A stretch of DNA of 39,721 nt, taken from the NCBI GenBank assembly GCA_002256025.1, contig NKIB01014885.1, positions 1 through 39,721 of the forward strand, read 5' to 3'. Shown here one piece after another: positions 3,921 to 32,860 of the stretch. Both the position numbers and the translations under genes were made by a program. The notes under the pieces are model-generated. The model ran no database searches. It was not told where the DNA came from and saw only the letters and a list, made by a program, of their open reading frames with translations. Source of the stretch: Asterionella formosa. Its lineage: Eukaryota. Numbering within the stretch: position 1 is the first letter of the stretch; each line of letters opens with the position of its first letter.

Positions 3921-4380
3921 CGATCTGCTTCTTTGCCGAGTAGTTGTTCGATTCTTCTTGCACGATGGGTTATCACTACAGATGGCCAGAGTCAAAGCCG
4001 ATGATCATTTGCCCTACTCAAAATAACAGAGAAACGAGACGTTGCAAGCAAACCTTCAGTAAACGCCAATGCGCTTGCAAAATGTGTCGTTTGCGGGCAA
4101 TACGAATAAAAAATGTGAGATTTTCTGTCTTAAGTAAATAGAGCGAGGTGTGCGAACAAGGCCAACATTCAAAAGAATTTTTATAACCAATGCTGAATAT
4201 TAAAGAATCATTTGGGAGGTATACTGAAATTGCAGATCAAGCGTCGCCGGCTCGATCATTCCTTTAATCTACAATACTACAAACGGATGCAGTTAAATCA
4301 CAACGTTAACTTTGTAGATGTCCGTAGATTGAGGTAACCCATCAGACGAAGCACATAGTGGGAACATGCATGAATAATTA

Positions 4381-4990: not shown

Positions 4991-6256
4991 ATGACATTGC
5001 AACAAACGCTGCTCCTCGCCTTGCTGACCTCACAGGTCCTTGCCTTCCATCTGGCGCCAGCCTGTCAACGACGCACCAGACTCAACTCATCTACCGGCAA
5101 TGGCCCTCCACCTCCTCCCGACAAGAACTCTGGCGAATGGGATGACTTTTTGAATCCCCAAAACCAAGAATCTGAGAATTTGCGACGAGCTCGTGAATAC
5201 ATGAGTGACGAGAGTCTCCCGATTTCATTTGAACGATCAAATCAGGCGGAAGCCACGCCTTTGTCGCCTGAAAGCAAAACAGAGGTGCCAGCAACATCTG
5301 ATTTAGTTATCGGATCTACTGCTGCTGCTGCTGAATCTCTTCTCGAAGAGCCTTCTGCTGAGATGCTGGCAAACAATCCGTACATGATGGTTGTCGCCAA
5401 CTTGGCGCCATCCGACATTATTTCTAAATTCACAAAAACAGCTCACCCTCGTGTTCAAAATGCTGTTCGAGCCACTATTCTTGGCTTGATCGGAAACTTG
5501 CCCAAAATGGCATTCGAAACCAAAACAGTCACAACTGGGCAGCGTCTAGCATCGCTCATGTTTCAACTACAAATGACGGGCTACATGTTTAAAAATGCGG
5601 AGTATCGATTGAGTCTCTCGCAGAGCCTAGGCATGAATTCGAATCCTGCGCTAGGGCAGTCGTCGAGTTTTCGCTTGACCGGATCGGAGGGTGACGATGG
5701 CGACGAGGGTTATGTAGCTATCGATGGGAAGGTACGCGGTAAAATAAAGATTCGCTATGGAGGATATGATGCTAGCGATTCCAGTGGCGAAGTGGATGCA
5801 AATACTGAAACAGAAGGCGCCGGGTTGGAAATGGAGGTCGACGCCGCTGCATTCACATCCGAGCTTCGGTCTGAGGTGGTAAAATTGAGGGAAGAATTGA
5901 CTATGAAACGAAACGAAAAGGATGAAGCCTTGAGAAAAGATCTTTTGCTCTACATTCGCACTCTGCCGGATCAAGAGATGCGCTCTCTTACCAGCACAGT
6001 GACTCAAGATGTATTGGTCGCAATGAAGGGGCTTGTCAATGTCGTCATGTCGGGGATAGGCGAAGGTAGCATTGGACCGGAGACAGTTACAGAACAGAGT
6101 GGCGAAGCCATGGCGCAACTTTGTATGTGGCAGCTTGTAGTAGGGTACAACTTGAGAGAATTGGAAGTACGGGAACAGATGAAGAATTCTCTCATGAAAT
6201 CATTCGGAGATAGCGATGAAGGAGTGGACTTTTCTGAGGTAGGCATTCTCGAATAG
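4991..6256 (+). CDS. DUF760-family protein with two DUF760-like domains, predicted plastid-targeted
   Basis: Intronless 421-aa ORF. Signal peptide ends VLA-FHL (ASAFAP-like). Motifs ILGLIGNLP...LASLMFQLQMTGYMFKNAEYRLSL and LLLYIRTL...LAQLCMWQLVVGYNLRELE-like second domain resemble DUF760. Confidence 0.8.
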   Translation: MTLQQTLLLALLTSQVLAFHLAPACQRRTRLNSSTGNGPPPPPDKNSGEWDDFLNPQNQESENLRRAREYMSDESLPISFERSNQAEATPLSPESKTEVPATSDLVIGSTAAAAESLLEEPSAEMLANNPYMMVVANLAPSDIISKFTKTAHPRVQNAVRATILGLIGNLPKMAFETKTVTTGQRLASLMFQLQMTGYMFKNAEYRLSLSQSLGMNSNPALGQSSSFRLTGSEGDDGDEGYVAIDGKVRGKIKIRYGGYDASDSSGEVDANTETEGAGLEMEVDAAAFTSELRSEVVKLREELTMKRNEKDEALRKDLLLYIRTLPDQEMRSLTSTVTQDVLVAMKGLVNVVMSGIGEGSIGPETVTEQSGEAMAQLCMWQLVVGYNLRELEVREQMKNSLMKSFGDSDEGVDFSEVGILE

Positions 6257-7043: not shown

Positions 7044-7322
7044 CTCTCTCTGTTCCAGTATAGTTGCAACACCACTCTAACGACTAACCTGGCTTGATCC
7101 ACATCCTTCAAAGAAGCCCTCTGTAAAGGCAATATGCATATTCTACACAAGACGATGCAGGCTATGGATACATCGGCTCTTAGATTTGTGTATTTAGGCG
7201 AGTACAACACTAAATAGCGATACAGGTGGATGGTTTTGGGCTCTTGATTTGAGAAAATCATAAGAGTCAAAATGGGCCCGGAAATTTTGAATTATCGATG
7301 CAACTATTTTTTTCAGAGGGAG
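7044..7322. mobile_element. Stowaway-like (mariner-type) MITE, about 280 bp
   Basis: Left end ctctctctgttccagtatagttgca is inverted relative to right end tgcaactatttttttcagagggag, which is followed by TA. The left about 175 bp is homologous to 26133-26310. Confidence 0.75.
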
Positions 7323-7469
7323 TAACAGTTAAATACTTCATTGAGCTTCTATTTAACTAGTACACTCGATCAATTTGTATGACTAAACACTGACATATTC
7401 ATTTCAATCATCACAGATGTTTCAGATCTTCATGAGAGCTAGGGGACTATGATTGGACAAATTATTCAA

Positions 7470-14272: not shown

Positions 14273-14414
14273 TTGAAACGGTATGTAGCGTATGCCTGTT
14301 ACTCCCTCTGGGGGTTGTTGAAAAGTGTTCGCATATTAAGGATTATGTGGCCATCATACTATGTTTCTACGTGAGGGTCCACATACTCGAAAATATCTGT
14401 TTGTTACTAGTTAA

Positions 14415-15915: not shown

Positions 15916-16000
15916 TTAACCTCTTTCTCATCTACACGTATTCTACTGCTGATGTGACCTAAGCAACTTGGTTTATCTCGAGTAAACTCGGATACCGGTA

Positions 16001-18102
16001 CCAGATAAAAATGGCTTGGAGCCACTCAACGATATAATATTTACAAGCAATGTATACATAGATTTTTCTAATTTTCCAGTTATGACAGTTTTTAGTATGA
16101 CAAAGTTGTACCTTATGTTGAACCAGATACAACATATCTCGTTGTCGATTAGGTTATTTGTTTCAGATAATCAGATAAATTTGTTCGAAAGTAGAGATCG
16201 GCCCAAAAGTGGCAAAACAAACTATACCATTGAGCCAGCATCTCCCGGAAATACATGTATACATTTTTGTACACAATTTGATATATATTTAGTTGCCTTT
16301 AACCGCCATGGACCATGTACTATACCAATAAATGAATCAATTAGTCACTCTAAGTTAATGAATGCAATATTTCTTTAAGGCAAAAAATGGAGCCATGTTT
16401 TCATGTCAGAGACCGTAATTCAAAGCAGAAAATGCTTCTGACACACCAAAAGTTAAATCAAATCGCAGGCATCTCATTAACAACGATTAAACTTACAGCA
16501 AAAAAAACAGCCTCAACTACCCAAAAAGTACGAGGTGATGCCTATACTTTGGATAAGACTGTAGTGTCACTTATTTAAAAATATATATATAGTAATGGAT
16601 TTGGAAACTTTGAATGGCAAATAACAATGGCAAACTACTATCAAACTACTGTGTGGTGCAATATCGAATATTGTTGCATCAAAGGCGGCTACACTGCCTT
16701 GGAAAACAAAACCTAGTCCAGGAACATTTATAGAAGCTTAATCAGGCGGGAAAGGCAACTAGCTAATTCACTTGTGCAATTACATGCTACTATGACAAGA
16801 AATGATTCACAGCCGTTGGCAGGACATATTTATTAATCTCTATTCTGACTATAAATTCAAGTTTAAAGATCCAACTCACGAAATACAAGAGACACTTACT
16901 CGCCCATAAGGAAAGGCGCCATGTTGCATTGGCTGTTGAACAGAAAGATATTGTTGACCTGATGTTGAAAGCATGGGATGAATCATTTGGCCATATCGCT
17001 AAAAACCAAAAAGCTGTTGCTGAAAGGCAGAGGTTGGGGTCCATTGAATTACAACTTGTTGCCCCATCCAGAAATTCAACTGACAAGTACCTCAAATCTT
17101 CAAACAGAATCAAACAATAATCAACCCGCCTCTTACCTTCCCCCTTCCGGTCTAAACTTGAGCCAAGGCATCACTGGAACCCTTGTTGATCAGGTCTTAC
17201 AGTATCGCAATCGTCAGGACGCTAGAATGGGAATAAATCTGAACAAACTTACCTGCCAACGAAAAAATCAGTGCCAAGAGCGATTGCAAGCAATAAACGA
17301 TACACAGCCGGTCTTTCTATCTCCGCAGGCAGTTACTTGTTAAGTTTTGAAGTGGTGGATGAACAACTAAAAAGGAAGAGGCACGCGGAAGAAGTGCAAA
17401 GTGAGCGAGAGAATAAGAAAACAGATGCAGAAATGGCGCTTGCATACAAGGCTAATGCAATCAGACCGCTTAACAAATAGCCAGCTGAGTGGATAGTAGC
17501 ACAAACGAAAACAATGGCAACTGGGTAGAAGCAAGCAGGAAACCTTCCATTTCCAACAACAAAACAACTACTACTTACCAGATTCCATGACACCATGCAT
17601 GATGTGTGGCGTCGCTGCAGTATCAGTTGCAACTGCTGTAATGGCTGATGCCACTTCCTCATCACCCTTTGGTTGGCTGCTCCTACTATAACAAAACAAG
17701 ATATGATGGGAGGACCACAAGTCTGAGGATGATGCAGCAACTACTGCGAAAAAATATGAGGAGACAGAACTGACAAGAAAACCATCAGTCTAAAAATGAT
17801 GCAACAACTGCGAAAAAACGTGCAAACGAGATAATACTTTCTAGCCGTCGCCTATGAAAATAACTACATGTAGGGTAAAATTTTAATCATTGGTTTTGAG
17901 CCACTTCGACCGGTTTTGTCACTTTAAAGAGGACAGATCTCAATTAATATATGTAAAAGTATAAAAATGATCTAATTCTCATGTAGCTCAATGAACTGAC
18001 TAATATCGTGCCAAAGGGCGAAAGAGGGAAATGATTTTTGCATGCTTCAAGAATGATTCGGAAAACGACATAAAACCATGGCTCAAAGTCATTTATAATT
18101 GG
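16001..18102 (+). mobile_element. Internally deleted pogo-like Tc1/mariner element with TIRs of about 25 bp and TA target duplication
   Basis: Left TA|ccagataaaaatggcttggagccac; right catggctcaaagtcatttataattgg|TA. Frameshifted transposase-like C-terminal relic at about 16860-17595: DIVDLMLKAWDESFGHIAKNQKAVAER / GWGPLNYNLLPHPEIQ / KQAGNLPFPTTKQLLLTRF. Confidence 0.78.
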
Positions 18103-18431
18103 TACCGGTATGTGCCAAATGCTGGTATGTAAGTTCCGTTCTTATCATTTTTTCATGTACTGCATCACGAAATTTGAAAATTTTTGAAAATGTATAAGCA
18201 ACGGCAACTCGATTTGAACTGAATTTCATTCATTCCAAAATTGACACTGTGTCACTAATTCGTGATCACATTGTATCATGGAGTAACATGGATCTTCAAC
18301 GGCAACTGGCTGGCGAAGATCAGGTGTATATCCTTCCAGAATATATTGATGGTCTTGATATCAAGCAGCAGCATAAAATATAATTATTGGTAAACTATAA
18401 ATTATTTTAAAAACACACCATTGTATGAATC

Positions 18432-19670
18432 ATGCCGTCACCATTTGATTTACTTGATGATAATGATGATGACAGCAGTGATCTTGAATTTTTCTTCCTC
18501 TGTCATTTAGCTAAGGAAGCGGAGGAAAAAGAACACTCATCCAAACGACAGAGGTGACAGTGTAAACGGAAGCATCACTCATCCATATGACGACGACAAA
18601 AAAGGCACAAGTGACACCATGAAAGAATCTCCTGGCAATCACATGTCAAGAAACTCAATCACGAGATTGCTTTCGAGAAGACATACAGAATGTCACACAG
18701 AGCATTCAAAAAACTCATCTCCATGCTGGAAATTCAGATTGCAGGGAATTATTTCAAATGCGGTACTTCTGAGCCCATTATTCCCAAAATTGTGGTAGCC
18801 ATTGGTTTGCAATGGTTGGCTGGTGGCAGTTACATCGACATTTGTCATGCTTACAGTTGTAGCATTGCTTCACTTTATCGATGTCATGATTTGTTCATTG
18901 ATGCTGTACTAAACTGTGAAGAACTCAAGATTATTTTCCCAGAAGAAAAAGAAGAATTTATCAAATTGGCTTCCAGCTCTGAATGCAAAAGCTCCGAGGG
19001 CATGATAAGAGGATGTGTTGGTGATATTGACGGCCGGTTTCATAGCCACACTCAACCGCCCAACTTTAGTTTAAAGTGGCAAAAACCCTGGTTCATTTTT
19101 TTTCGGTCACTACATGACTTATGGAATCAATGTTCAGGCTGTTTGTGATGCTGACTCAAGATTTTTTATTTTGGTGTGATTGCACCGGGAAAATACAGTG
19201 ACCAAGTAGCTTTTGAACGAACTTCCATTTTCAATCGAGTTGCAGCACTCAATAGAGGTTTTTATCTGGTCGGCGATGCAGCATACACATTGTCTGATGT
19301 AAAGCTTGTTCCCTTTGTTTTCTCACCACGTGATGATTTAACACAGGATACATTTAACTTTTTCCTTTCACAGCTGAGGATAAGAATAGAAATGGCATTT
19401 GGTCTTCTTCAGAAAAAATGGTGTGTTCCTAAAACAACCTATGGACAAGCTTGGAAAGATCTGCACGCAATCTTGATCCATGTGCTCGACTTCATAATTA
19501 TGTGATTAATAAGAAGATAATTTTGATAACAAGATTTTGGATGTTAATCAAATACTTGCAGAGATGATTCCAGTCAGTTTGTCACCCCTTGGTTGGGGCT
19601 ACTTACTGACTGTGGAACCATTGTGTATATTTCCTGGAAGCTCTGTGATGCGAGATGTGATTCTTACCAG
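18432..19670 (+). pseudogene. PIF/Harbinger (HARBI1-like, DDE_Tnp_4) transposase pseudogene
   Basis: Motifs across frames: FEKTYRMSHRAF, GLQWLAGGSYIDI, GCVGDIDG, YGINVQAVCDADSRF, YLVGDAAYTLS, FNFFLSQLRIRIEMAFGLL, CARLHNYVIN. Several stops and frameshifts. Confidence 0.85.
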
Positions 19671-20355: not shown

Positions 20356-21453
20356 TCACATTGTCGGCTGCCTCATAGGTTCAGTCTCTCCGCAACTCGC
20401 CACAGTCACATCCAATTGATCGCTCTGCGTCGTTCCTTGAAGATGCAATTTAAGCCGGGATCGATGTGCCATAAAACTAATCACGGTATCCCATACGATG
20501 TCAGTCACATTCATGGCTAGAGTTCGAAATGTCAAGGGCAGGAAGCGAAAGCAGACAAATTCCAGTGGCATTAATATCAACGAAGTCGCCCAACTAGCGC
20601 GCAGGGTTGGCACATAGTCGGCCTGAATCTGAGGCCAAATATCCTTTTGAAGTCGATAGCCTTCCATCAACCCCGTCATAATAAACGCAGATCCCACAAA
20701 AATTGAATCCAATATAATTGAGTCTGCAACTACATGAGCCATGGCAGCAGCACCTCGATGCGCACCATTGGTTGGCACGAGTATCTCAAAGAAGTTATAT
20801 CCAAAATGCATCAATGGACCAGAAATAATCAACCCATCTGCCAAAATAGCTAGACCTCGTCGCAAGTCGTAGGTCCTATGAATTCTCAATACATCCTTCC
20901 ACGTAAATGACTGAGTCGTTGGAACTCGACTTCCCAGCTTGAATTCAAACCACTGTGCCAAGTAGTCTCCGCAAATGCCGAGCACACCTGACGTGATGGA
21001 TTTGGTAATCAAAGGAGCAGAGTCAAGACGCATCATATACCACGACATGGAACAACTTGAAACATGGCCTAGGATATGTAATGCATGGCCACCAACGGAT
21101 TTAAGCAATAAAAGTATAGTCAGGACTACAAACTGCCACGGAGAAAAAGTAGAACTACTTGATCTCGCCAATGCGGAGACGCTTGAAGCGACAGCAGGTT
21201 GCACCAGTCGAGAATCTACGAGAAAGTTTTTACCGAGAAGTATCCAAGGCATTCGGCTGTTGGGTTGCTTGCTTTGTATGTCGGCAGATTCACTCGGTAG
21301 ATTCATGGAACTACGCATATGTATTTTTGGACGTTGAGAACTTCTTATCGTTTGTGGAATAGTCAAGCCATTGGAAGCTGATAGCAATAAGCTAAAGATA
21401 ATCAGCAGAAAGTAAACACAGTTGCTCGTCTTGGAATGCATTGCAAGGTGCAT
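20356..21453 (-). CDS. Mpv17/PMP22 family membrane protein with N-terminal signal peptide and extension
   Basis: Motifs PLITKSITSGVLGICGDYLAQ, YDLRRGL, GPLMHFGYNFFE, PTLRASW, FRFLPLTFR...IVWDTVISF. ATG at 21453 or 21441 (the track start is non-ATG). Hydrophobic leader ends SASNG-LT. Confidence 0.88.
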   Translation of the reverse strand: MHLAMHSKTSNCVYFLLIIFSLLLSASNGLTIPQTIRSSQRPKIHMRSSMNLPSESADIQSKQPNSRMPWILLGKNFLVDSRLVQPAVASSVSALARSSSSTFSPWQFVVLTILLLLKSVGGHALHILGHVSSCSMSWYMMRLDSAPLITKSITSGVLGICGDYLAQWFEFKLGSRVPTTQSFTWKDVLRIHRTYDLRRGLAILADGLIISGPLMHFGYNFFEILVPTNGAHRGAAAMAHVVADSIILDSIFVGSAFIMTGLMEGYRLQKDIWPQIQADYVPTLRASWATSLILMPLEFVCFRFLPLTFRTLAMNVTDIVWDTVISFMAHRSRLKLHLQGTTQSDQLDVTVASCGETEPMRQPTM

Positions 21454-21625
21454 CAACAGCTGCTGGATCAACGCAATATCGGAGACAAAGAAAATTTACC
21501 CCGAGGGCTGATGTGCGTGTGTGCAAAAAGTGAGACTATACTTGTAGCTAGGTGTTTTGCTAGGTACATACCGGGAAACGGACCAGCTACCAGTATTTGT
21601 ATTACACAGGACGAACCAGAAGCGT

Positions 21626-21663: not shown

Positions 21664-21849
21664 TATGTTTGATGTTTGCATGTTATACGAGTATGTTGCA
21701 TAATCCTCAGAAGTCTCAGTTCTCTTTGGTGGGAGGCGTGGTGCTTGTGGCTGCTGATGGTGAAAAGACTATGCAGTCCGTCCATCGCCCAACCGCCCAA
21801 GGTAAAAACAATGCATCCCCTTGCCTGCTTCGTCCTCATTGTTTCAGTC

Positions 21850-22389
21850 AGGTTCTTCCATTGACAACGGAATATATGATTGTTTGTATTGATGCATTTA
21901 TCCATTATAGAGGTTCAAAGCGGTATATTGAAATGTCTTGATAGTGTAGAATTAATTTGTGTTCTATGGGGAAGACGGATTATAATGTTTCATAATGCAT
22001 ATTCGGGATCAATTTCCTGTACTACATACACTTGGTATGATTTCTACTATGGGGCTGAACAAATCAATGTGCGATCTAAATAAATATATGATAATAAGGT
22101 TTACCAAATTCATGTATGTGTACATATGCCTGTTTACTCCGAGGTCGTGGCAAACCGCTAATTTGTCCTAAAAAGGTCGATTGACACTTTCACGTATAAA
22201 TATTGATTACACAAATGAATGTTCAGTGTAGCTAGTTCATACTCAGAGAAGCGCTACATGCTCAGCTACAGATGGATCGTTACAGATTTGTAAACTATCA
22301 GAAATTCGTGACAAAACGTGTTATTCTACGTATAGTGGTTCAAAGCAGTAAAATAATTTCGATAGAGGTGCAAAGCAGTTTTTAGGTGG
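21850..22389 (+). mobile_element. Family A right-end fragment (homologous to 7470-7986); first unit of the TA-linked chain
   Basis: Shared blocks with 7.5-8.0 kb; subterminal ggttcaaagc(a/g)g repeats; ends caaagcagtttttaggtgg|TA. Confidence 0.7.
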
Positions 22390-22391
22390 TA

Positions 22392-23128
22392 CCAGTTAAA
22401 AACTGTAAGCCACCGCTAAATGGAGTAAATGCAAGGTTTGAGCTTAGTTTTCAAGAAACGTTAACTATTGTGACGAAGGAGTTGTTCAGATTTGCATAGC
22501 GAGTAAAAACATACGACTTCGTATTGTTGCTTTGTGTAAGTTGTTAAATACTTATTACGGCCCAAAGGTTGCTGTCGACGCGAAATTACGAAAGATGAAT
22601 ATTTTCACGTTTAATCTGCTCATGAGCTGGCATCGCCTTTTATATATGTATACCGGTATATGCACAAGAATAATAATGTTCTTCGGATAGAATTAATTTA
22701 GTATAATTAATTGGGGGTAGTACGAGATCATCATGCTTTCGAATACGCTATGCGTCAGAAGCATTTGGTGATGATGCAAGTGCAAAAAGCACATTGTATC
22801 GCGCCTAACAGGTAAACTGATACGAAAAGAATTTCTGTAGTATAAACGGAGTAAAAGTAATCACGGTTTGGGGGGGGGGGAATATACTCATGTATGGATA
22901 GAAAATATGCACTGTAGGCCACCGCTATGCAACAATCTTAGTGACTTTGAAAAAATTAGATCTTCATGGCTTTATAAACTGAATCGTAACTGATTACTTA
23001 TTCGTTGAGTAGAGTGCATCGTTTAATATACTCTTCTTACTTACATCAGATTTCGATTGATAAATTACTTAAATATTTTTTAGTCGGAACATGGAGTAAA
23101 ATAACGGTGGCTTACAGTTTTTAACTGA
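22392..23128. mobile_element. MITE family B, copy 1 (about 740 bp, TIR about 27 bp, TA-flanked)
   Basis: TA|ccagttaaaaactgtaagccaccgcta ... taacggtggcttacagtttttaactga|TA. Confidence 0.85.
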
Positions 23129-23130
23129 TA

Positions 23131-23885
23131 CCACTTTAAGACTGTAAGCCACCGCTACAACGACTTTTGAACTGTAAGCCACCGCTAAACGGAGTAAACG
23201 CACGATTTGAACTTAGTTTTTAAGAAACGTTAATTATCGTCATGAAGGAGTTGTTCAGATTTATATAGCGATAAAATACGTAGTAAGTACTTGTATTGTT
23301 GGATTGTGTAAGTTGTTAACTATTTATTACGGCCCAAAGGTTGCTGTTGACGCGAAATAGCGAAAAATTGAAAATTTCACGCTGACTCTATTGAGTTGAC
23401 ATCGTCTTTTCTACACGTGCACATGTACATGGACAAAAATATTCTTCCCATAGAATTAATTTAGTATTATTAAATGTGTGTACAATGTCATTGTGCTTTC
23501 GAATATATTGTGCATCAGAAGAATTCGGTGATGATGCAAGCGCAAAAAGCATACTGCATTGCGCCAAAAAGGTAAAGTAATACGAAAATAATTTCTTTAG
23601 TATGAACGGAGTAAAGATAATCACGGTTTGGGGGGGGGGGAACTCATGAGTGGATAGAAAAATATGCACTGCAAGTCACCGCTATGCAACAACTTTAATG
23701 ACTTTGAAAAAATTAGATCTTCATGGCTTTATAAACTGAATCGAAACTGATTACTTATTCGTAGAATTGAGTTCATCGTGTAACATACACTTAGTACTTG
23801 CATCAGGTCTCGATTGTAATCTTACTTGAATATTTTTTGGTCGGAAGATGGAGTAAAATAACGGTGGCTTACCGTTTTTAACTGG
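23131..23885. mobile_element. MITE family B, copy 2, head-to-tail with copy 1
   Basis: Left end has a doubled actgtaagccaccgcta; interior is collinear with copy 1 (ttacggcccaaaggttgctg, atcacggtttgggggggggggaa, tttgaaaaaattagatcttcatggctttataaactgaatcg); ends cggtggcttaccgtttttaactgg|TA. Confidence 0.85.
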
Positions 23886-23887
23886 TA

Positions 23888-25368
23888 CCACCTAAAAACT
23901 GAGAGTCATCCTTATTTTACCCTAAGTTACTATTCAAATTATTTTAGTCCGATTACATGGTAATATTGAAGCAAGTACGAAGGTTATTGTGGCTCGTCCT
24001 CCTGTTGGGTACTACTAGATCTAAATATAACTATGGTGAACTCAATATTTCTTGAGATAAAAAATTTTGTAATGTCATCGTTTTGCCTCATAAGGATGAG
24101 TCTCAGTATATTGGTTTTTAATAAATACATGAGGAAATTTAAATCTTCCATTTTTCCCCAATTACCCATTTTTGCCAGAAAAACTTTTTGATGCCACAAC
24201 ATTATTAGTCCGTTTCAGATTACTATCCTTTATTTATTGTCTCTTTCGACGTTTTCTTTCCATAATAATAGTCGGTTTCGAAGATACTCCACTATTAACA
24301 TTTGGTTTCGGGTCAAATGCAACTTAAGTTAATTACTTTAGTGACGGTTTCGGTAATATTTAATTACGTCTATCGCGTGACAGCCTAACACTTGTTGCTT
24401 GACAATCCTCATACATAAAATATGTAGACCATGCAATAACTGCTGGCGATGAAGCTGTGTACCAGGGTACCTTGTACTGGTACTAGTACCGGGTAATCGT
24501 CATGACAATGTTGCTGATCGACAAAGCCATGACAATGATGAATGACAATTTTGTTTAATTATTGAATTATGAATCAATGATAGTTTTTGAATGTTATCTC
24601 GAGTAGATTATGTTATATCGTAGAACAGCGCATCTGTTCGAAAGTGTCGCGTCTTGATGCGACAAAGAGGGATCGAGAAATCATCGACAGTGTCGAGCGC
24701 CATTGTGAGTTTTCCGATTTTCCATATTCGACTTTATCTAAACGAATATACAAGCTACAATGAAATTCGTTTCAAAATATACTAGCGAATAATCTATTCT
24801 ACTCAGTGGACTAATAATAACATAGCTTCATGCTAGAAAATCAACAATTTTCACTTGTTTTAATGGTTGTAATCATAGTGCCGGCAAAATATCTAATTAT
24901 ACACCGGTGAGATTCTGCCGTCAGTGCGTAGATGCCGGTAAACTGATCACTGCCTTTGATCAATGTGTGGTGAACAGGACGGAGCAACAGCACTCCATGT
25001 GACATTGATAATCAATTGAAGTCAATAAATATAGAAACAAAAGACACTAAATAATTAACAAAGAATCAATAAAAAATTTATTTAGCTGAAATGTGATCTA
25101 ATTGTCAAAAATGCCTTGCCAACTCAACAGGGTAATCTGATTTGATCCAAATTTTTGCGACAGCTACCTTTCGACCTATTTATCTCAAGAAAGGAAGCGA
25201 AAACTCAACTTACAAGTATGACCATTGCTCTTCCATACATTCCAATGAACAACTTTGTCTAAAACAGAATCAATGTATCTCCAATATTCGTCCCAAAACG
25301 TGTGATTACCCTGTTTAAGGATGACTCTCAGTAAAAAAAGAATAACGATGACTCTCAGTTTTACGTGG
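23888..25368. mobile_element. Non-autonomous element family C (about 1.48 kb, TA-flanked, TIR about 22 bp)
   Basis: TA|ccacctaaaaactgagagtcatc ... gatgactctcagttttacgtgg|TA. Subterminal copies gatgactctcagt (25320) and gatgagtctcagt (about 24096). Internal TACC array at 24459-24495. Followed directly by ccaggtaccaggta. Confidence 0.78.
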
Positions 25369-26132
25369 TACCAGGTACCAGGTAGTGTCAGAGCAGCCAT
25401 CATGTTAAAATTTTGATTGAATGATTTCATCAGAAGTTCCAATGATAATAAAACAGCTAAAAAGTTATTCCAATGGTTCACGGCAGTATATACGTTTTTC
25501 TAGATAAATGTATATACATTTTCGAGGATGTATTCCTAGGTCAGCATGTGTCAAAGCACTTTTCATGCATGTTATTGCACACCTTATGAAAAACTGGTAT
25601 TTAATCCCTACCTGGTGTTATACCAGTAACCATACTATATGATGCTGCATGCCTAAATAATTTGCCATATCCGTAGAGGTTAATACCAGGACAAGATATA
25701 TATTGTCACAAATGAGGGAGGGTAAGGTTCAAAAAAATTACGAAAATTTGACATTCATCATCATATATCATCATATGACGTGGAGACTTCTAAGCTTAAA
25801 CTAGTCCGTGTTCTCCATGGTGTTTTGGTAAATCGATCATTTCAGGCAATCTATTGAGATGAACAGCTTGCTCCAAATCTCGAACTACATAGCTGACTAG
25901 ACTACATACTCTCAAAATTTACATTTACATAAGTTTGATATCAAAATATGATATTCTGGGTTCAATGAGTCAGAGCAGTACAAGAATATTGTCAATGGGT
26001 CATGGCAGTTTGTTACAGGTATCAGGATCTCAGAATAGCATGGGACATCCTGGTGTGCAAATAGCATAGCAAGTAGAGGACTGTTGACAAGATCTTAATG
26101 AAAAATAAACTGCTTTGTTGTGGAACTGGGTA

Positions 26133-26310
26133 CTCCCTCTGTTCCGGTATAGTTGTACTAACACCCTCAGCGACTAACCCGGCTCGATCCACATCGTTCA
26201 AAGAAGCCCTCGCTCTGTAGAAGCAACATACATTTTCTACGCGAGAGAGGATGCAGGCTACGGATATCGGATTGATTTGTAGATTTAGGCGAGTATAACG
26301 CTAATTAGTG
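26133..26310. mobile_element. Truncated Stowaway-like MITE (left part of the 7044-7322 family)
   Basis: ta|ctccctctgttccggtatagttg...cgactaacc..gatccacatc..ttcaaagaagccctc..gatgcaggcta..tttaggcgagta, all shared with 7044-7220. Confidence 0.78.
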
Positions 26311-27179
26311 AAAAATGTGTACCTTTTTATTAGGGCTATTGAATTTACTTGAAATTCGTTAGCCAGCATAGTTGTTTGGCTCTACATGGATTGGAATACA
26401 ATGTATCTGGTCATAATGTTGTGCCAGGCAGTATCATTGGTTTTCTTCAAGTCAGCGTTGTTGTCAATGAAATGCCAGACAATGAAGAAGAAGCTATTTT
26501 GCGGTTGTTTTGATGGGGGATAGTGGACACGGCACAAGGGAGGATGGAAAGACTTGTTGTTGTGTTCGTCTGCAAATAAAAACCATCATATTCCTATGAT
26601 GCATCATAGGATCATGATCATCTGATCATAATTTTTCGTTGTATCATCTAATAATTTTGATAAATGCCCTCGTAATTTAAATAGTAACCCTTTTGACTAT
26701 GGAAATTTAATTATTATATGTATTGTTTCTTTTTGGTTCCTTTATTCAAATTTTTTGGTAGGATAAAGTACCAGTTAGAGTAATGTGGTTTGGCTCATCA
26801 TCCTCGCCAGTCCTCACTCTGATTCTTGCAACAACGACAAAGTAGCCATGTCGAGAGGAACAAGTGTTTGTGAAAAAATCTTCATTTGCCGCTCAAGTCA
26901 TAATTGTCTTCGATGAATCATCGTCTACAGTGCATAGTGTGTTCGTGTGCAATCCGTTAAGAGCTTGAAAAGAAATCCGATGAAAACGAAATGGCTCATC
27001 ACACAAGACAAATATTTCCGACCAGTCTGTCACCAGAGCATCAATCAGTGTTACAACCTCAATCATAGCTAAACGGCATCCATTATAGAACAGCACAATC
27101 TACTTCTCCATAACATCGTCTCTCTAACGAGAACATAATACATGTAGAATGGAAATGCAGCATAGCAGATGATATGCAC

Positions 27180-28330
27180 AAAGAAGCAAGAGACTGTCTA
27201 TGTACAGTAACAAAGTGATTCTGGTTTCGTAATTTTCATGTCTCATTAGATTTCATTTGTCATCGGCCGCACTAGTTCCTTACCTTTGAAGACAGGAGCG
27301 TATTCTTTGATGTATCTGGAATGGTTCAATGGATGGCAGCAGTTGGATTTAGACACAAACCTCGACAAAAGCACGACTTTGTAGATGTTCATGAAAAGGG
27401 AGACACTTTGGCCTATGCCCACCAGCCAGTCTATACTGCAAAAATGCAAGAAGCACAAGTTGAAAGACCATTTATGGATTCAAGTTTCAGTAGTGCAACA
27501 ATGTAAAATATTAGAAACCGGAAGTCACATTTTATCTAATTACGGTTTTCAATTTTACTATTATTGATTGAGAGGAAGCAATGGGCGGGGGAAAACACAG
27601 AGAATCCTACTAATTTTTGTCCCCAATGATACCAGTCCCTTCTTGAATGTCACATGCTACAGAAAATGGAGGACAGCCGCCATGATCTGTTGATTGTTGC
27701 TGTATGGTGCCAGTGAGGACCAAAACCTCCAGAAATCTCAATGAGTTGCTTGTTTCTTGACTTGAATGCCCAAGGGATCGAAACCAGTGGAAAAAGCAAA
27801 AGGGAACTAAAAATTATCTGAAACCATCAGGACAACCGTGAAAGAGAAACGAAGGTTGGTGGGGGAAGTAAAGGATTATTGCTGGTCTTGCGAGAACAAG
27901 GATGGATTGACCCAAACAATGTTGACAAATAGATACTTACCGGAAATTCGGCGCGCATCATCAACCTATATACAAGCCTGCGCCACCTGATGTCAATATA
28001 GCTACCTCGACTTCATCAATGAAGAAGTCGATGGGTGGAACATGTGAGAAAAATTGGGGTTGATGTCGTTTTCCTTGACGCCAACGTGCTTGGCTGAACT
28101 TGCAGATGAAGGCATTGAGTAACCTGGGCCTGTGCTGCCAAAGGATAAAGAAAAATCTATGACAATGGCAGGGTACTGAGATAGTGTTTAGGAGCAAAAG
28201 GTATCATAGCTGAACGCATTCGAAAATTTGTATAGACAATATCTGGTAGCATACCATGGCTGCTCTTGACTGACAGTTGCCAAATCAAAGTCAATGCACA
28301 AATACAACAAGGGTGCACAAGAGATGGTCC
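27180..28330 (+). pseudogene. Decayed IS630-Tc1-mariner-type transposase
   Basis: Fragments WMAAVGFRHKPRQKHDFVDVHEK (27.3 kb), KGLLLVLREQGWIDP (27.87 kb) and LTPTCLAELADEGIE*..WAC (28.07 kb) resemble the KGLxxVLxERG and PKxHxELxxIExxW motifs. Many stops. Possible left end ta|ccagtta at 26769. Confidence 0.6.
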
Positions 28331-29679
28331 CATTTTAATCGACCGGATGATACATAGTTCTGCAATGGGATGAACTTTGAGAAAGAATACATTTTTTGCA
28401 TAAAAGTGTCGGAAAATGCATAAACCGATAGTCAAGGGAGTCGGTGATCATTTCCGCAATACGAACCTTTATTCGCGTAAAGAACAAGCAGGGTACTGTT
28501 GAATGGGTGAAAGAATGTCTATAGTAAACTTTCAAATGACCTCATCAAGATTCCATAGAAATATGGACCACGACAATTAGTGCTTACATGAGACTCACTA
28601 GAAAATTCACGCAGAGGATTTTCTTGCATCTTGAAATGTTGTACCCTCTCCAAGAATGCTGTCACTCAAGCTTCTCATCTATTTCAACAAAACATAGAAA
28701 AACCTTATCTAGTCAAAGTTATCAAGCTAATCACCGCGGACTCAATACTGTCTCGTTTGTGGTCATATCTTCAAAGCTGAGCAAATGACGGTCAGAAACA
28801 ACTTCCAGCGCCGATTTCAACTTTTTGTTGTCAATACTAGTGCAAAAAAATTAAAAAATTAAACGATAATCTCGCCTATGTTAGTCTACATACACCTGCG
28901 AAATAGGAATTGCTCATTGTCAATATTCGTGAAGATAATCAACTCCATAATTTCGTCATGGTCAAGATGGAGTTGCTGTCTCATCGACCCCATACCACAG
29001 GCAGCTGTACAAACACACATGCAAGTACTGGTAGTACATACCCAGTATTGTGTATGCATGCCAAGCATATATAATATACATCACTATATACATGTGTTGT
29101 CCCAGCAGTTGGAATTCACATGTAACCCTGTAGGTCTGCTGTCATGCATTACTACTTGGCAGTAATAGTCCACATCATACATCATATTGGCATTATATTT
29201 GGAATTGCTGTATGTATCCATGAATTACTTTTTGTCAAAAGTCGCTCCACAAATAACGAAATGTCTAATTCTTCCAACTCATCTCATAATTCCTCCTCTG
29301 AGGAGGAGGATGATAGCATCTTGCAGCGTTCAGGAGATAGTCCGTCAGATGAAAGGCAGTGCTTCCTCTTCTGGGAAGAAAGTGGTAGATCCTATTAACT
29401 TTTCCATCCTGCCATTGTCACCTGCAGGCGACCCTCCAGCACGCACTGACAATTTTCCTGTTCCCCATGGCGACACTCCTTGGTGCTAGGAGCCGGACTC
29501 ACCAGACTTTATCATACAGACAATGACTGATTACACTTTGCTTAGCTTGTCACAAGGCTGTCAAGAAGATTTGGCCAAATACCGAATTTGCATTTGGAAT
29601 GTGATCTTATCATGCCTGGATTGCATGAATAATTGAAAATAGAGGAAAGTTCAAGAAATACGACAAAAACAAGAAGAGA

Positions 29680-30657
29680 ATGGGTGAAGACTTCGAGGCG
29701 TATAAAAGAAGTCGCTGGATACTACAGCTAGCTCCAATCCTCCGCGATTTGGGACCCATTCACACCAGAATTGAATTGAACAGTTCCAATCTACTTCGTG
29801 GTGGTTTGCCTGCACTCAACAACAATTCAGAGGGCATCAACAGTGGTGATAAATCATTCTTTGCTCACGAGGATTGTTCCAAAGGGGATCTATCATTTTG
29901 CTCCACTTTACACTCATCGGTACACTCGATCAATTTCTACAAGTCGATTTATAAGCTTCTTGAGAAAAGCCAAAATGGAGAAGCTACATTTCTCACAATG
30001 ACATTTGATTTCAAATGTGACGCAATCAGAATTGGAGAGGGTTCACTGTTGATTGCGACATCGTCATTTGTGGACCTAAATATTATGTCCTCTATGCAAA
30101 CAATGCAGTCCCAGAATACTGCAACTGCATTGTAACAGCACAGTCAACTATCCCAATATCGAAAGAGATATCTTTATATCGGAAACACAGAATCAGTTAC
30201 TGCACTAACTGTTATGCAATCATTGATAAAGAAGAACAAAATGCATGATGAGTACAAGCGCCTTCTCCGAAATCCTGAACAGTATTCTGCTAACCACAAA
30301 TTTGATGATGTCCTTTCGCTCACCTGCAGGTTTCACCTTATTGAACCTATTGTGTCCAAGAGTGAAAACGGTGATGATGTTACTCTACCTAATTTTTAAG
30401 GAATTTTGGGAGCGTGTGGATTGGGACCCATTACGATTAATAGCTTGAAAGAAATGGGAAATGAAGATCTCATATCTTGCCATTGTCACACATATTTAGC
30501 AAAGGCGTGGTGTAAACATGCATGTGCTTTTGCATTTGACCGTGGAATTATTTCAACCTTTCCAAAGACAATGCATCCAAAGCCTAGTATTAAGAATAAA
30601 GGTTCTGGACGAATCAAAAATGCGAAACGTGGAGGTAACTTAGATATTAATGGATGA
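29680..30657 (+). pseudogene. Decayed MULE/Mutator-type transposase C-terminal half with SWIM zinc finger
   Basis: PALNNNSEGIN resembles the MULE TNNxxExxN motif; SCHCHTYLAKAWCKH fits SWIM CxC-x(n)-CxH; basic tail GRIKNAKRG. Broken into three or more ORFs. Confidence 0.65.
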
Positions 30658-31007
30658 CTAGCTATATTTAGAAAAGAACTAGTAGTGATTATAATAGTTG
30701 TCAATGCTAGATAGGAATCTCATTAGTTTTCCTATGTCTAACGAGCTCTTCCAGGGCAGACTTAATCGACGCAAATATGAATCTTTGCGCTTTATGGTGT
30801 TCATGGCTTATCACTCCATAAGCAATCATTTTCGTTTGTTGAGCCAAGTTGGTTGCAATCACTGGAAAAACGCCGTTTCCTTTCTTGTGTCAGTTTGTAA
30901 GATGCATCAGAAGATTGGATTGCTCCAGAATTGCTGTCTGTAAGCATTCAGCAACAAATTCTTGGTTGTTAGTACAGCTACCAAAGATTCTTCGTCTGGT
31001 CGACAGT

Positions 31008-31810: not shown

Positions 31811-32389
31811 TTCGTCAGCCACTTCTTCGTTTTTGTCTGAGATATCTTCCATCCCAGTGGTTTTCAAACCACCGGGTCAGGATGTAAACAAGTTTTGTCT
31901 CAACATGGAGGAGGGTCTATAATTTAAGTTAATACATAGTTTTCTCCTCTATATCAACACTAACATTCCTTGCTTGGCGGTGTATCTATGTGGGTACCGG
32001 TACATCGCTAGTAAATAAATTTATTACGGTAACACATCTGCTCTTTTTCGCTATTGTTTGATGTCGCTGCATGTGTAGAAAGTGCTCTGTAGTATTTCCA
32101 CGTACTTTTAAGTACCCATGACGATCAATTTCAACGTGGGTACCGGTATCGAAGCCCATAACAGAACATCCTTTGTGCTGTTCGAAGATAAGTACAGCCA
32201 TGGCAGCTGATGGAGTGACCTTGTACGAAAACGAACGTCATAGACCGGTGTCGTTATTCAAATCGAAATACCGAATTCAATTGATGTTGTCGGCGCCAGG
32301 CTATTGTAGAGGCTGTCACGGTCAATGCTGAACTGACTACAGTTGCTTTCGATTATAATTCTTTTGGTCTTGATAGCGCCGAGGCCATC

Positions 32390-32860
32390 AACACAGGTCT
32401 TCAAGGTCGATACTGTTGTGACTACACTTGATCTCAATGGCAATTCAATTGGTGATGATGATGCAAAGGCCATTACCCCATCGAGGTCAATTTCAACACA
32501 GGCCTTCAAGGTCGATACTGTCATGACTATACTTGATCTCAATGCCAATGCAATAGGTGATGATGATGCTAAGGCCATTACGCACCCCATCGAGGTCAAT
32601 ATCAACACAGGCCTTCAAGGTCGATACTGTCATGACTACATGACTAGATCTCAATGCCAATTCAATTGGTGATGAGGATGCAAAGGCCATTGCCCCCTCA
32701 TGGTCAATACTGGATTGAATAACTTGAATTTACTTCTGAGGCAATTAAATTCACGTCAATGCCAATTCAATTGGTGTTGATGACGCCAATTGAATTGGAG
32801 ATGCTCTCAAGAAGGTCAATCCTGTCTTGACATCTTAACAATGCTTTCTCTCAATTGTAA
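32390..32860 (+). pseudogene. Degenerate RNI-like/NLRC3-type leucine-rich repeat array (3 near-identical units of about 105-109 bp plus decayed units)
   Basis: Units start at 32390, 32495 and 32604 (aacacagg.cttcaaggtcgatactgt) and encode KVDTVVTTLDLNGNSIGDDDAKAI. Frame is lost in unit 3; no start context. Confidence 0.75.

Follow-up and report, generated by a model that had tools for sequence, protein, structure and literature searches.

A train of TA-duplicating transposons at one TA in Asterionella formosa, and a target word that its ends and scars probably rebuild

Why do four transposons stand end to end, parted only by single TA dinucleotides, in contig NKIB01014885.1 of the diatom Asterionella formosa (assembly GCA_002256025.1)? 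The whole stretch analysed, 39,721 nucleotides (nt), is called the window, and all coordinates are positions in it; the genome searched comprised 68.4 Mb. The elements, named A, B1, B2 and C, belong with a fifth element, F, to a group of TA-duplicating transposons that we call the clan. A reading made from the sequence alone had listed junction TAs between A and B1, B1 and B2, B2 and C, and C and a terminal TACCAGG array, and all four were found (22390-1, 23129-30, 23886-7 and 25369-70), as was the array itself, TA-CCAGG-TA-CCAGG-TA at 25369-25384. The four-element train A-B1-B2-C was thereby confirmed as real. The best explanation, which we hold to be quite probable, is that the clan, of IS630-Tc1-mariner (ITm) type, prefers GG-TA-CC and that its ends and its excision scars both rebuild this target, so that visits recur.

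The features of the locus are as follows.

21843..22389, plus strand: element A, the right-hand 547 bp of a non-autonomous clan family of ~680 bp; its left end is absent from the window contig
22390..22391, no strand: junction TA of A and B1, GG-TA-CC, from the sequence
22392..23128, plus strand: element B1, 737 bp, an internal-deletion derivative of an autonomous family; its terminal inverted repeats (TIRs) match at 25/28
23129..23130, no strand: junction TA of B1 and B2, the final G of B1 changed to A, from the sequence
23131..23885, plus strand: element B2, 755 bp, of B1's family
23886..23887, no strand: junction TA of B2 and C, GG-TA-CC, from the sequence
23888..25368, plus strand: element C, 1481 bp, a non-autonomous clan element without a long open reading frame (ORF)
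24460..24495, no strand: multi-unit TA-scar array within C, where another C copy has just one TA, from copy comparison
25369..25384, no strand: TA-CCAGG-TA-CCAGG-TA, two probable excision footprints
25385..26019, minus strand: remainder of the host element F with its far TIR; clan family of ~730-770 bp, one internal TA of which is occupied by the train
20356..21495, minus strand: neighbouring gene of the Mpv17/PMP22 family, first ATG at 21453, given for context only

Four elements of one clan inside a fifth

A, B1, B2 and C were found to have the end motif CCASYTAAAAACTG in common (547 exact ends genome-wide), and all clan ends carry CCA(C/G)(C/T)TAAAAACTG, with 547 exact genomic copies compared to 2 for the reversed control. 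Dozens of dispersed copies of each of A, B and C were present, with 75-93% identity and unrelated flanks (40 candidates scored per search); full copies of the A family measured 650-730 bp and had both TIRs. The sequence-only reading had described three different families stacked rather than nested. As families with dispersed solo copies of their own, A, B and C did stand, but they all belong to one clan with one terminal motif, and the train is nested after all, since it sits inside F.

None of A, B, C and F contained a long ORF (longest stop-free frames 50-95 aa). B was shown to derive, by internal deletion, from 2.9-3.7-kb elements that have its ends and carry relics of a transposase, and both B and F aligned to both ends of transposase-bearing copies. 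TIRs, a target-site duplication (TSD), lack of an ORF, many copies and ends like those of an autonomous element were all observed, as in MITEs (miniature inverted-repeat transposable elements) and other non-autonomous elements, although C (1.48 kb) would be a long MITE and has only ~100 terminal bases in common with transposase-bearing copies. B1 and B2 were 82% alike, whereas their nearest dispersed copies were closer (88% for B1 and 90% for B2); B2 therefore represents an insertion independent of B1. Nor was A-B-B-C always one unit: solo copies of every family were found, and C stood alone at locus L037.

Other members of the clan were also seen. A relic autonomous-type element occupies 15992-18111 of the window, with ends CCAGATAAAAATG / CCAATTATAAATG, and CCGG-TA at its flank; it is 37.5% identical to the intact clan transposase described below, over residues 502-746 of the latter. 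A further clan family, ending in CCAGTAAAGAACTG (L179-L181, L184, L191-L195), had GG-TA at 8/9 ends seen, and its transposase tail scored identically in ~10 contigs, so that it was possibly active recently.

Target duplication, target preference and growth of the train

Empty paralogous sites overlapped by exactly 2 bp for at least 5 independent insertions, and TA was present on both sides in 35/43 two-ended clan elements. Among the 43 elements with both TIRs, no register besides TA gave direct repeats clearly above shuffled pairs, and a CWG register fitted none (0/43). The target duplication of the clan is TA; duplications of GTAC, CWG or longer were rejected on the register test and the 2-bp overlaps.

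The sequence-only reading had further claimed targeting beyond TA, which the flanks bear out. GG-TA preceded 335/547 exact clan ends. In loci chosen without regard to junctions, TA was kept at 173/195 ends, and these 173 were preceded by GG in 124 cases, by another G in 31 and by a CCWGG unit in 46, compared to 7.3% for GG and 1.0% for CCWGG among 23,330 TA half-sites in 200 kb taken regardless of elements. Where neither a unit nor another end was adjacent, G still preceded the TA at 54/72 ends. The flank profile at 194 ends, junction-picked loci included, showed G at -3 (0.87), G at -4 (0.75) and T at -5 (0.48), which mirrors the ..TGG end of the clan, and several empty paralogous targets already read G-TA-C(C). 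A control family from the same genome, a CCG-ended pogo, showed GG at only 5/62 and any G at 19/62 ends (counted by eye, with a search pattern that left out flanks starting with C). As this control was unbiased, array abundance or CC ends alone cannot account for the bias of the clan. Thus, judged by the flanks of resident copies, the clan strongly prefers G-TA-C, best GG-TA-CC; insertion into random TA was ruled out by the excess of GG-TA at ends, the background counts and the control. The terminal TIR bases are also the preferred bases flanking the TSD, and CC..GG ends do rebuild the preferred word, as had been proposed.

Canonical DDE_1 pogo elements with CCG..CGG ends were located at L333 (364-2832) and L334 (378-2838); equal-scoring copies occurred in several contigs, and these elements are possibly recent.

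Before-and-after states of the locus were provided by paralogues. The 100 bp of F lacking from the window were found on contig C10255 (L136), followed by TA-GTGG-TA and then the intact left end of A; C10255 overlaps the window by 127 identical bases. At the homologous TA, the 34 left-anchored F rows comprised 31 that were empty, 2 with clan elements and 1 divergent, and among 6 right-anchored rows 3 were empty, 1 had a CCGG unit (L157), 1 was truncated and 1 ambiguous (rows include alleles). Paralogue L037 (contig C2118) has the flank and private changes in common with L136 and the same TA-GTGG-TA, which is followed directly by C, and this C is the nearest relative of the window C (92% over the 686 bases covered; next 85%). 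On these alignments, L037 shows the site without A, B1 and B2. C would have arrived after F but ahead of A, B1 and B2, which may have followed in any order, and is probably the earliest of the four train members. The elements of the train were shown to have arrived independently at one TA of F.

Element A in the window is 5'-truncated, cut at 21843 at a 3-base microhomology, and contigs of runs X1, X2 and X6 all cease matching the window at 21845; when another contig was sought that would extend the unique DNA to the left of 21845, the window alone was returned. The break at 21843-21845, where the Mpv17 side joins A, appears to be either a haplotype-specific deletion or an assembly join. The train begins 390 bp from the first ATG of the Mpv17/PMP22 gene, measured across this doubtful join, and the link to a promoter suggested in the sequence-only reading is positional and unsupported.

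Genome-wide, 11 end-to-end junctions were found at <=1 mismatch, 4 of them from this locus and its duplicate contig C5307, a near-copy of window 21843-30842 (99.99%) that was left out of independent counts. Six of the remaining 7 join different families. Exact junctions numbered 5 (4 without C5307), compared to 0.04 expected for random TA. Ends that abut another end were rare (2/173; 16/547); trains are the rare tail of the process (~1-3% of ends), somewhat above a simple model. A pair of clan elements with TA-CC(A/T)GG-TA between them was seen at L157 (~721-731, contig C5997) and at L217 (~4001-4007, marine metagenome), either as a train that lost its middle member or as insertions on either side of a unit. 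A B copy, L028, abuts a Stowaway-like TA-CTCCCTCTG end.

TACCWGG units and the competing explanations

The two-unit TACCWGG word was present at 5576 genomic sites versus 2 for its reversed control. Between consecutive TAs, a third-order Markov expectation was exceeded 27-fold by CCWGG, 13-fold by CCGG and 26-fold by CCAGGG/CCCTGG. The length variants of the unit were one-sided (CCAG/CTGG 186 versus CAGG/CCTG 36; CCAGGG/CCCTGG 40 versus CCCAGG/CCTGGG 2), and likewise in the 200 kb sampled regardless of elements (51 versus 16 and 5 versus 0). Such one-sidedness would be expected of footprints because the CCA overhang would be kept and the G's filled in. Paralogue alignments showed 206 gains of X-TA at a TA; those of C..G type numbered 36, among them 17 CCGG, 4 CCWGG and 7 multi-unit gains, and none of these 36 duplicated neighbouring sequence. 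One repeat site was found empty, occupied by A and scarred in different copies, and the array within C at 24460 was a lone TA in L060 and intermediate or longer in L035, L040 and L033. The TACCWGG units are probably excision footprints. That the variants stem solely from the decay of a plain CCWGG microsatellite was rejected on their one-sidedness and the non-duplicative gains at TAs. The same alignments contained non-duplicative C-TA/G-TA gains (42 events) and GC-TA gains (17) at TA sites, probably scars of other TA-duplicating families.

Together, these observations suggest the following course of events. A cut-and-paste clan with CCA..TGG ends would insert at G-TA-C, best at GG-TA-CC, and each CC..GG element, by the logic of the sequence, would leave xx-TA-CC and GG-TA-yy, so that the site is kept or improved. 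Excision would leave 3-nt CCA overhangs, the repair of which to TA-CC(A/T)GG-TA and variants would supply GG-TA and TA-CC again. As insertion and excision would both restore the target, every visit would raise the odds of the next one; most visits would end as scars, giving TACCWGG arrays, and seldom would several elements remain as a train. At this locus, F would have been followed by a first event leaving GTGG-TA and by C; A, B1 and B2 would then have come in at the TA on the left side of C, and visits to its right side would have left the two scars. CCGG scars of the CCG-ended pogo, a non-selective family, may be what starts new sites. The self-regenerating target of the sequence-only reading is thus borne out with respect to the TA duplication, the preference and the end-restored word, but that reading left out excision footprints as a probable second restorer. 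Its mechanism was mostly right, is partly supported, and has a known precedent in the P element.

Several points weigh against this explanation. The GG bias was weaker in other genomes, where ends of clan relatives in metagenome contigs had G at 29/52 and GG at 12/52 (background 25% and 6%). The flanks are post-insertion and aged, and transposition and excision are both read from sequence alone. The first event in F hit a non-preferred A-TA-G and its GTGG unit is no standard footprint, while the link of C10255 to the locus consists of the 127-bp overlap and the continuity of F, not of one contig. Single CCWGG gains numbered only the 4 given above, most lone scars being CCGG, and lone scars had a G or C neighbour in only 25/72 half-sites, far under the clan bias; this context would fit seeding by the non-selective pogo. 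Among the joints listed for contigs of four runs, none skipped one unit, which does not show that such joints are lacking.

Adjacent units were identical in 17/20 pairs of the 200-kb sample and in 28/50 pairs of another sample counted by eye, and slippage therefore probably also adds units. That the arrays are altogether a pre-existing slippage microsatellite or promoter-type repeat, which the clan has come to target by evolution, insertion rebuilding the site but excision creating no units, is unlikely. Units do avoid long ORFs, as such a repeat might (2/84 inside versus 39% ORF cover in the 200 kb), an avoidance that selection alone explains. Against a pure repeat stand the units that arose de novo at lone TAs without a neighbouring template (36/36 non-duplicative), the one-sided length variation, the 22/50 unit pairs that were mixed, and the empty, occupied and scarred states at a single TA.

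The 4-5 exact junctions exceed the 0.5-1.0 expected from a half-site motif model, a four-element train being rarer still, and some local factor may add to the motif preference at trains. This excess (~4- to 10-fold) would be accounted for if sites were revisited without being read, local hopping or an end-bound transposase drawing insertions in and GG-TA flanks being a by-product of old scars. The 57/173 ends that abut a full unit and the low G/C bias of lone scars are also consistent with such revisiting. We consider it very unlikely, given the G before TA at the 54/72 ends with no unit or end alongside, the several empty targets that were already G-TA-C(C) and the unbiased pogo of the same genome. 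A composite element, a tandem duplication, an assembly artefact or a CWG duplication of the NuwaI/Harbinger3 type is largely refuted and hardly probable: C5307 repeats the region, the left join at 21843 resembles a graph branch and F with C may have been copied as a block (L037), but every family has solo copies, B1 and B2 are too unlike for a recent duplication, one contig of run X5, from another study, spans C, the units and F (25313-26593), and the CWG register and 2-bp overlaps are as given above.

Other features of the window comprise a broken PIF/Harbinger-like transposase (DDE_Tnp_4, E 2.6e-9) in a high-copy repeat at 18615-19505, Stowaway-like ends (TA-CTCCCTCTG) of very high-copy repeats at 26131 onward, 7314-7341, 9680 and 14283-14310, and a 105-bp tandem repeat at 32387-32709, which we take to resemble decayed leucine-rich-repeat coding units.

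The clan transposase and comparison with known systems

Clan elements with one large ORF were 2.9-3.6 kb in length, the clan transposase has ~800-950 aa, and an intact relative, L178 (contig C14068; 3532 bp), had matching TIRs and an open frame of 779 residues. In 55 sequences, D310 and D459 were invariant and D497 was at least 90% conserved, with 37 residues between the second and third D (DD37D); these residues are the predicted catalytic triad. The family gave 273 matches among 8000 candidates scored, with 1517 representatives at E<=1e-30. The nearest named homologues of the transposase, like the gene content of the genome, suggest a diatom. Members from metagenomes at L255, L257, L259, L265 and L268 had CCG ends instead of CCA.

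Pfam scans of the clan transposase gave no match, neither to DDE_1 (PF03184; 0/55 members) nor to HTH_Tnp_Tc5, and the 116 DDE_1 matches in the genome included no clan loci. Compared by profile, the clan transposase did not match the DDE_1 pogo proteins of this genome either (probability 0.25%), and a sequence search of the PDB gave no match. In the ESM Atlas, the catalytic part scored 0.94-0.95 to DDE_1 clusters, the nearest named ones, and the whole transposase 0.86-0.88, its nearest clusters being unnamed diatom proteins. TA duplication, short TIRs around one transposase ORF and a DDD/E triad are those of IS630-Tc1-mariner elements. As the likeness to DDE_1 was found via ESM Atlas features and not by profile matches, the transposase is named ITm-type and loosely pogo-like, and not a proven pogo. 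As summarized in PMC7386202 and PMC7325037, the pogo superfamily likewise has a TA TSD, short TIRs, one large ORF and a DDxD spacing within DD29-56D, and the clan (DD37D, 2.9-3.6 kb, 779 aa) falls within the ranges given for it (DD29-56D, 1.2-5.2 kb, 300-977 aa; PMC7386202), but differs from it by the lack of a Pfam DDE_1 or HTH_Tnp_Tc5 match.

A target restored by the element's ends is known from the P element, the terminal TIR bases of which are described to complement and restore the target motif, regenerating a 'safe-haven' and improving the hotspot, with repeated insertions set apart by exactly one TSD (Linheiro and Bergman, 2008; PMC2577343). As described there, the P element is of another superfamily, with an 8-bp TSD and one family involved, whereas the clan duplicates TA and several families share one site; a clan footprint would likewise rebuild the target, and short arrays in their thousands would result. 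Tandem dimers formed by double insertion are reported to be joined by one TSD, with junction motifs nearer the preferred target than those of single insertions (McGurk and Barbash, 10.1101/158386); in that account the dimers stay within a single family and are expanded through unequal exchange, in contrast to the different families mixed with scars seen here. The Triticeae beta-amylase case, in which a Stowaway MITE re-inserted beside a footprint and footprints retain 1-4 TIR bases between TAs (PMC1925063), is similar in that TA-duplicating MITEs were repeatedly gained and lost at one TA, but concerns one locus, and that account describes neither a multi-element train nor a match of footprint and preferred target.

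Excision of Sleeping Beauty and of further Tc1-mariner elements, as outlined in PMC6943129, produces 3' overhangs from cuts within the element, and repair leaves 2-4 terminal bases between TAs. The Sleeping Beauty scar is TA-C(A/T)G-TA, whereas the CCA overhangs of the clan cannot pair and would be filled in to the 5-base CC(A/T)GG. In Table 1 of PMC2577343, AT-rich targets are listed for Tc1, Tc3, Minos, Mos and Sleeping Beauty, the last preferring AT-rich palindromes; the target of the clan is GC-rich. IS630 in the same table (CTAG target, 2-bp TSD) is also of ITm type and has a short, GC-containing palindrome around TA for its target, but is bacterial and reads C-TA-G rather than G-TA-C or GG-TA-CC. 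The 3-bp CWG duplication of NuwaI/Harbinger3-type elements was absent in the clan, as shown above. In the literature covered, which included few subscription journals, nothing was found on such trains or arrays in diatoms, nor any TA-duplicating clan that stacks several families at a GC-rich target equal to its ends and scar.

The nested series at a single TA is new, as are the intact transposase of the clan and the family used as a control. The analysis provides before-and-after states at single TAs and joins three effects, each known on its own, into one proposed feedback loop, namely the end-restored target, two insertions sharing a TSD, and the footprints of excision. We regard it as an even chance that an unnamed diatom-wide ITm lineage reads TGG-TA-CCA, a mimic of its own ends, and that insertion and excision rewrite this word, so that an intergenic repeat among the most over-represented of the genome would record transposition autocatalytically, as a landing pad seeded by a non-selective pogo family and open to several element types. 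Were the loop to hold, transposition and not slippage would have built a short repeat dispersed over >5,000 sites, and its GC-rich 6-bp preference would set the TA-duplicating transposase apart from the elements named above, the targets of which are AT-rich. An intact copy could then yield a transposase that stacks cargo at GGTACC sites. As the transposase family is large and invisible to Pfam, it is probably under-annotated in diatom genomes.

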